Source: an uncultured Candidatus Saccharibacteria bacterium (GTDB taxonomy: Bacteria > Patescibacteriota > Minisyncoccia > Phycocordibacterales > Phycocordibacteraceae). From it: a stretch of 64,000 nt of DNA. The position numbers and the translations under genes are program-made. The notes under the pieces are model-generated. The model was given only the letters and a program-made list of their open reading frames with translations. It made no database searches and had not been told where the DNA came from. Positions 33,126-33,314 of the stretch are shown piece after piece. The stretch is from positions 15,280-79,279 of the forward strand of contig CAYMNZ010000001.1 in the NCBI GenBank assembly GCA_964391975.1, given 5' to 3'. Position 1 is the stretch's first letter. The number at the start of each line of letters is the position of its first letter.

Positions 33126-33278
33126 GTAAGGTTACTAGGAAAATAAAGCGCCACGGGCGCAAACGGAAGGCCGGCAGGAGGCCGGGGAGTGCTTATCCCG
33201 TGAAGCCGGACCAGGTCTGAGTTGCTTTGTTGTGAAGCATAGGACTACCCCGGGAGTATAGCCTGAGGTCCTATAAAC
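33126..33278 (-). promoter_or_regulatory. structured 5' leader of the YhhQ-like gene: candidate 15-codon leader peptide plus hairpins plus intrinsic terminator (attenuator or riboswitch-like)
   Basis: Minus-strand sense: ATG CTT CAC AAC AAA GCA ACT CAG ACC TGG TCC GGC TTC ACG GGA TAA, then GGCCGG...CCGGCC hairpins, then GCGCCCGTGGCGC-TTTATTTT about 15 nt before the start codon. Confidence 0.35.
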
Positions 33279-33284
33279 GAAAAA

Positions 33285-33314
33285 CGCCCCGGGTATCCCG
33301 GGGCGCCTCTCTCA
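33285..33314 (-). terminator. Rho-independent terminator of the small membrane protein gene
   Basis: Minus sense GCCCCGGG-atac-CCGGGGC-GTTTTTCG. Confidence 0.75.

Follow-up and report, generated by a model that had tools for sequence, protein, structure and literature searches.

A leader peptide family in front of folate genes of Patescibacteria

A short peptide gene conserved in front of folate uptake and folate enzyme genes of ultra-small Patescibacteria probably stalls the ribosome to switch those genes on when folate runs short, possibly by detecting that its first methionine lacks the folate-derived formyl group. The copy analysed first lies in a 64,000 nucleotide stretch (the window) of an uncultured Candidatus Saccharibacteria bacterium (GCA_964391975.1, contig CAYMNZ010000001.1, positions 15,280 to 79,279), from a 773 kb, 98% complete genome whose relatives are named Patescibacteria/Paceibacterota. 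In what follows G numbers denote genomes (G000 being the genome of the window), C numbers their contigs and L numbers the individual loci or leaders extracted from them. The peptide family, M-L-x-N-x-x-[IT]-x-T-W-S-[GS]-F, comprises 57 ATG-started copies and precedes 23 of 106 related VUT transporter genes, and a search blind to neighbouring genes found 35 more copies, of which 20 precede folate genes (folA, folB/folK, folC, folD, folC2-like) and 14 precede genes with no clear folate role. The literature drawn on was PMC11625349, PMC4161248, PMC5372724, PMC11890864, PMC10653936, PMC7264889 and PMC11602147, and literature searches listed no paper describing this leader, as judged from listings that did not cover subscription journals and supplements.

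To determine whether the leader described in a sequence-only reading was present we re-examined the minus strand between the upstream gene and the transporter. That reading had described a strong upstream terminator, a 15-codon ORF, GC-rich alternative hairpins and an intrinsic terminator in front of a YhhQ/VUT gene, and all of these sequence features were found. The upstream 99-aa gene (33323-33622) is followed by a strong intrinsic terminator (33305-33275; stem 33305-33285, U tail from 33284; -28.6 kcal/mol, z -5.95, 0 of 200 shuffles as stable), which insulates the leader and is not part of the switch. The ORF runs from ATG 33240 to TAA 33193 and encodes MLHNKATQTWSGFTG. It is followed by a GC hairpin (33185-33171, CCGGC-loop-GCCGG) and a last hairpin (33160-33148) plus TTTATTTT, the hairpin and its U-rich tail spanning 33160-33140. 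The distance from there to the transporter ATG at 33125 is 22 nt rather than the roughly 15 nt first given. The last hairpin is weak (-7 to -8 kcal/mol, 8 of 200 shuffles folded as well) and the whole leader folded no better than shuffles (z 0.03). What lifts the leader above chance is the conservation of the peptide. A predicted -10 box, TATACT (33260-33255), had been missed; it lies 14 nt before the ORF start, and the same word and spacing was found in 6 of 6 members of the nearest clade, although a consensus promoter scan listed no promoter because of a poor -35. No Shine-Dalgarno sequence precedes the ORF, and Shine-Dalgarno-like words precede only 45 of 580 long ORFs in G000.

The leader feeds a predicted operon of two genes on the minus strand. 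The first (33125-32475) is a VUT/YhhQ-family transporter (PF02592) that scored above the cut-off of TIGR00697 (110.5 against 50.95). The second (32494-31736), which overlaps the end of the transporter, is an F420_ligase-family (COG1478) protein. Its best-scoring model was TIGR04132, putative folate glutamate ligase, but at 183.8 it was below the cut-off of 350. infC-rpmI-rplT (31699-30576, minus strand) follow the ligase after 36 nt with no evident terminator between, and a -10-like word 9 nt before the infC GTG suggests that they have their own promoter.

The sequence-only reading had proposed a riboswitch class other than preQ1-I or a peptide-mediated attenuator, and had named an Rfam scan, folding and conservation in relatives as checks. 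Its interpretation was only partly supported: the peptide-mediated attenuator was supported, the riboswitch was not, and the queuosine context is probably wrong. The Rfam scan of the leader gave six matches at E<=10, none to a preQ1 or other riboswitch model and all far below gathering score. In 14 related loci no riboswitch model matched at gathering score and only tRNAs were found. A DNA-level search of the leader in 401 phylum genomes gave only 16-38 nt chance matches, and a strict DNA pattern matched 1 of 401 genomes, G000 itself, so that a peptide profile was needed.

To test for conservation at the peptide level we compared 106 distinct leaders of transporter homologues using the pattern ACN-TGG-Ser with an in-frame ATG allowed anywhere within 60 nt. 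Twenty-four leaders matched; 23, the window's included, are one family and one (L062) is a chance hit that was dropped from the counts. All 23 have the ATG exactly 24 nt (eight codons) before ACN-TGG-TCN, against 1 of 102 such words in the window's own genome, that one being this locus. L2 and F13, which were not part of the pattern, are kept in 22 of 23 with several codons. The three nearest same-genus homologues lack the leader, and eight pattern hits in viral contigs are chance, none lying before a relevant gene. A profile of the 23 peptides was then run on whole genomes without reference to neighbours, within the phylum only. It matched 11 of 401 phylum and 32 of 401 order genomes, G000 included in each. 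Of 38 new loci analysed 35 are genuine; L200, L201 and L230 were dropped because they have no start and lie inside other genes. L224 (GTG start) is counted among the 35 but not among the 57 ATG leaders, G670 and G576 yielded no loci, and L211 (from G750, unpublished) enters only the tally of 32 of 401. Over the 57 ATG-started leaders T9, W10 and S11 are invariant, F13 is in 53, I/T7 in 51, L2 in 47 and N4 in 37, while H3 is in only 28. Entropy at codon positions 1, 2 and 3 is 0.48, 0.38 and 1.41 bits, and lengths run from 14 to 25 codons. As the profile favours ungapped matches, the unbiased evidence for the fixed start register is the first 23.

The genes downstream of the 35 new leaders point to folate. 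The first genes were VUT in 6, a FolC2-like ligase in 6, folA in 1, folB in 3 (one with folK, one with a PabA/TrpG-type amidotransferase), folC in 1, ATP-grasp plus folD in 1, an unclassified membrane protein plus RibD_C/DHFR-like plus FolC2-like in 3, formylglutamate amidohydrolase-like in 3, NlpC/P60-like in 6 and unassigned in 5. One of the 3 amidohydrolase-like and two of the 6 NlpC/P60-like proteins were scanned against family models, and the others are assigned by resemblance. In 20 of 35 a folate gene lies within 1.5 kb downstream; 7 of these are canonical (folA, folB, folC, folD) and the rest are FolC2-like or DHFR-like. Fourteen have no evident folate role, and one VUT copy (L217) has no folate enzyme next to it. 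At L196, L206 and L207 the unclassified 231-242-aa membrane protein, with no Pfam or NCBIfam match, stands where the VUT usually stands, before the DHFR-like and FolC2-like genes, making it a candidate alternative folate importer. The leader also precedes stand-alone NlpC/P60-like (L204, L210, L221, L222, L228, L229) and formylglutamate amidohydrolase-like genes (L191, L223, L226), for which trimming of host folate polyglutamates and recovery of formate are speculative roles. In L193 and L208 (L240, L241) it precedes a small unannotated ORF family, in L241 next to glyA, thymidylate kinase-like and dUTPase-like genes. In L240 a gene similar to a stand-alone PurN-like formyltransferase of G000 (C1:443411-444017, L174) lies opposite the leader-preceded small ORF.

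The transporter clade itself has a FolC2/CofE-like ligase beside it in 86 of 96 loci with at least 800 nt of flank, and one carrier operon continues into glyA. At L040 (3001-4254) the transporter is fused to about 200 extra C-terminal residues with no NCBIfam match and is followed by the ligase and glyA. The ligase family includes Chlamydia FolC2 (CT611, COG1478), which replaces FolC and complements E. coli folC (PMC4161248). The window's ligase shares that family and lies in a genome in which no folC was found, but it differs in its low TIGR04132 score and in its pairing with a VUT transporter, and its predicted role as a folylpolyglutamate ligase rests on family and context. G000 has folA, thyA, glyA, folD and a def-fmt fusion, and no folB, folK or folC was found, so it must salvage folate. 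The fusion joins peptide deformylase and Met-tRNA formyltransferase in one 454-aa ORF (C1:392515-393879; L173:1016-2380), and similar 440-480-aa frames hold fmt in several other genomes. G000 also has tgt (C1:262589-263809; L164:1453-2673) without queA, queG or queH, a queuine-salvage pattern. In at least five other genomes (G521:C44:4035-5614, G543:C54, G544:C39, G542:C36, G534:C6) a weak formyltransferase match lies directly beside tgt, which could point to a formylated deazaguanine in tRNA. A second YhhQ-type VUT gene in G000 (C1:81773-82465; L175:2274-2966) is 34% identical to the window's, lacks this leader and has related genes in 14 of 49 genomes; its protein contains the word WSGF, also found in the leader peptide, probably by coincidence. 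We infer that the window's operon imports and glutamylates folate and that the second gene is the likelier queuine importer, although both score alike on TIGR00697. That YhhQ subfamilies may differ in substrate has been proposed (PMC5372724), for queuosine precursors only. Clustering or co-regulation of the window's transporter clade with que genes was not found, although not all neighbours were scanned for que families, and the clade is present in 8 of 49 genomes where tgt was not found, some of which may be incomplete.

To assess where a ribosome would have to stop we folded each leader with the region under a ribosome removed (12-15 nt from the P-site codon). Of 29 long leaders with a terminator, 21 lost it with the ribosome at codon 14, where shuffling of the intervening bases predicted 2.9, and 20 of these regained it with the ribosome at the stop. 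Nine leaders switched only at codon 12 or later and none the other way. In about a dozen long leaders the antiterminator formed at any early position, and these do not place the stall. Eight of the 29 did not antiterminate at codon 14, 16 of 57 leaders gave no terminator, and the automatic terminator choice mis-picked L213 and probably L107, which were left in the counts. In three short leaders (L109, L074, L154) the terminator starts 3-4 nt after the stop and is covered at codons 13-14. In six others (L199, L218, L225, L194, L222, L223) the downstream start opened by about 3-10 kcal/mol at codons 12-14, while eight (L195, L196, L206, L207, L216, L220, L221, L229) showed no such effect. The conserved motif (33216-33202 in the window) thus ends where the modelled stall is needed, the next codon is free (codon 14 carries 10 different residues) and a stall means ON, which is the pattern of an arrest peptide rather than of control codons. 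Equilibrium folding ignores kinetics, and the relatives are not independent.

The window's own copy is the weak case. In its clade of six leaders the last hairpin remained formed with the ribosome at codons 12-15 (0.74-1.00), and in the window's leader at codons 10-15. A competing helix between codons 12-16 and that hairpin is nearly isoenergetic in the window (-25.7 against -26.0 kcal/mol) and in L032, but it is not kept in L033, L035, L082 and L083 and would give the opposite polarity. Start-codon accessibility showed no consistent switch in this clade. What is kept in 6 of 6 is a contest for segment 3 (33175-33171) between segment 1, CCGGC in codons S11-G12 (33209-33205), which can pair with it when no ribosome covers it, and segment 2 of the GC hairpin, which forms when segment 1 is covered. 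Segments 1 and 3 paired in 30 of 30 cells in 6 sequences, with only one-sided C/U changes. The weak GCGCC/GGCGC hairpin is only a candidate for the regulated terminator. The next relative, L038, has a direct platform, a hairpin built from codons 12-16 that a stalled ribosome would block. No rho was found and RNase J is present, so leaky termination or mRNA protection are the options.

Together these data suggest a ribosome-mediated attenuator of a folate regulon driven by a conditional arrest peptide. What the sequences show is a short peptide of fixed register, M1...T9-W10-S11-[G/S]12-F13, conserved at the protein level in front of folate uptake, synthesis and glutamylation genes across Patescibacteria, and it is very probably a real regulatory leader; its translation is inferred from the coding signature and the fixed ATG. 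From folding we infer, as likely, that a ribosome held at about codon 12-14 turns the downstream genes on. In long leaders it would free an antiterminator, in short ones it would cover the 5' arm of the terminator or of the anti-RBS hairpin, and a ribosome that runs to the stop, or no ribosome, would leave termination in place. The nature of the trigger is a further inference and only tentative, though it is our best guess. Import and synthesis genes both carry the leader, so the stall must report shortage, and one folate product, the formyl group of the initiator Met, is built into every nascent chain. In this view, when 10-formyl-THF is short Fmt leaves initiator Met-tRNA unformylated. The 13-residue chain is still wholly inside the exit tunnel, out of reach of deformylase, so its free N-terminus can lock the arrest conformation, and the importer and folate ligase are induced. 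In the window the output step is less certain and may be a weak terminator and/or protection of the mRNA from RNase J by the stalled ribosome. The start never shifts in register, the 14-residue arrest peptide PepNL folds its N-terminus back toward the peptidyl transferase centre (PMC11890864), and bacteria initiate without formylation when folate is lacking (PMC7264889, PMC10653936). fmt was found at E<=1e-30 in 35 of 35 and 13 of 13 carrier genomes plus G000, against 77 of 91 in a phylum sample (Fisher p 0.002, kin not independent). However, fmt is common in the phylum (85%) and any folate user would keep it, so this co-occurrence is weak support, and a fixed start register is also expected if the N-terminal residues bind a small ligand.

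A possibility that does not exclude the others, but is itself doubtful, is that in the window's clade the expression platform has decayed or works through mRNA stability rather than termination, so that this copy regulates weakly. The weak last hairpin, the lack of a conserved antiterminator and the lack of a consistent change in start-codon accessibility fit this, and RNase J is present. In addition 83 of 106 homologues lack the leader, and 51 of 82 of these (among loci L002-L161) have a -10-like word 5-13 nt before the ATG, suggesting leaderless transcripts; many follow a tRNA gene or rplK. Loss is therefore common (9 changes on the tree). In contrast, peptide, -10 box, both hairpins and the 1:3 pairing are kept in 6 of 6 clade members down to 70% protein identity, which argues for continued selection.

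The same attenuator could instead sense a small molecule in the exit tunnel, as the established ligand-dependent arrest peptides TnaC and SpeFL do, with a metabolite that builds up in folate stress or an imported substrate promoting arrest, or a folate species relieving it. This fits the peptide conservation, the modelled stall position and the folate regulon equally well. We consider it less likely. The leader is carried by both import and biosynthesis genes (folB-folK, folB-pabA type), so that the stall must report shortage and not substrate, which needs either an unknown stress metabolite or ligand-relieved arrest, and it does not by itself explain why the start codon never shifts.

Classical codon-based attenuation, through want of a charged or properly modified tRNA (Trp at codon 10, Gly or Phe at 12-13, or folate-dependent MnmEG-modified tRNAs), is unlikely. 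W10 is invariant in 57 of 57, glycine supply depends on folate through GlyA, and about a dozen long leaders would switch at any early stall. However, nine leaders switched only at codon 12 or later and none only at 9-10, which a Trp stall (P site at codon 9) cannot do. Gly occurs in codons 12-15 in only 35 of 57 leaders and MnmEG-type codons in 25 of 57. There are no tandem control codons, and the conservation of L2, N4, I/T7, T9 and S11 would be unexplained.

Queuosine sensing, with His/Asn codons at 3-6 reporting Q-less tRNA and controlling a queuine importer, is very unlikely. In its favour 50 of 57 leaders have a NAY codon in codons 3-6, G000 shows the queuine-salvage pattern, tgt was present in 13 of 13 carriers tested against 27 of 35 non-carriers (p 0.09), and the transporter scores above cut-off as a queuosine precursor transporter. 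However, 7 of 57 leaders have no NAY codon in codons 2-13 and H3 falls to 28 of 57, a stall at codon 3 left the terminator formed in 8 of the 9 informative leaders, the regulated genes are folate genes, and G000 has the separate YhhQ-type gene without this leader. Finally, a metabolite-binding riboswitch (a preQ1 variant or new class) with an incidental ORF is largely refuted, for although yhhQ genes are often under preQ1 riboswitches (PMC5372724) and a few words resembled preQ1-III (PMC11602147; the comparison rests on Rfam), there was no Rfam riboswitch hit, the leader was no more stable than shuffles, those words are not conserved, conservation follows codon structure rather than the conserved nucleotides and pseudoknot expected of a preQ1 riboswitch, downstream structures share no sequence, and differences in codons 9-13 were 517 synonymous to 149 non-synonymous in frame against 40/511 and 124/427 out of frame (T, W and S being part of the search pattern).

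Among described systems, PepNL, TnaC and SpeFL likewise use a short uORF conserved as peptide whose conditional stall controls the next gene (PMC11890864). No shared sequence family was found with these, and here the stall is predicted during elongation at codons 12-14 with variable tails of 14-25 codons, the regulon is folate, and the proposed signal is N-terminal formylation or a folate-linked metabolite. As in trp/his-type transcription attenuators, many homologues have the 1:2 / 2:3 / 3:4 layout, with early stall giving antitermination and a ribosome at the stop giving termination. They differ in having no run of control codons (a single Trp, variable Gly/Ser and a variable codon 14), in a conserved motif that ends at the predicted stall and in a signal that is not an amino acid made by the regulated genes, and some copies appear to act on translation initiation. 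Short leaders in which a modelled stalled ribosome opens a hairpin over the downstream start (L199, L218, L225) resemble ermC/cat-type translational attenuators, but the regulated genes are folate genes, not resistance genes, and no drug is implied. THF and ZMP/ZTP riboswitches have the same regulatory job and preQ1 riboswitches before yhhQ the same position, but there was no Rfam match and the information is in the peptide, not the RNA.

The leader is an apparently undescribed arrest-peptide family, as inferred from sequence and folding, with a clear regulon in a phylum where little gene regulation is known. If the formyl reading, which remains tentative, is right, a nascent peptide would read the formylation state of its own initiator methionine and so report the 10-formyl-THF pool, a protein-free and riboswitch-free folate sensor. 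This would give N-formylation of initiator methionine a direct regulatory use, an old open question (discussed in PMC7264889), and would also provide a compact folate or antifolate biosensor. Independently of the signal, the leader works as a guilt-by-regulation tag. It points to a VUT clade as candidate folate or folate-precursor importers mislabelled as queuosine precursor transporters, and to FolC2-like, formylglutamate amidohydrolase-like and NlpC/P60-like proteins and an unclassified membrane protein as candidates for folate salvage in host-dependent bacteria.
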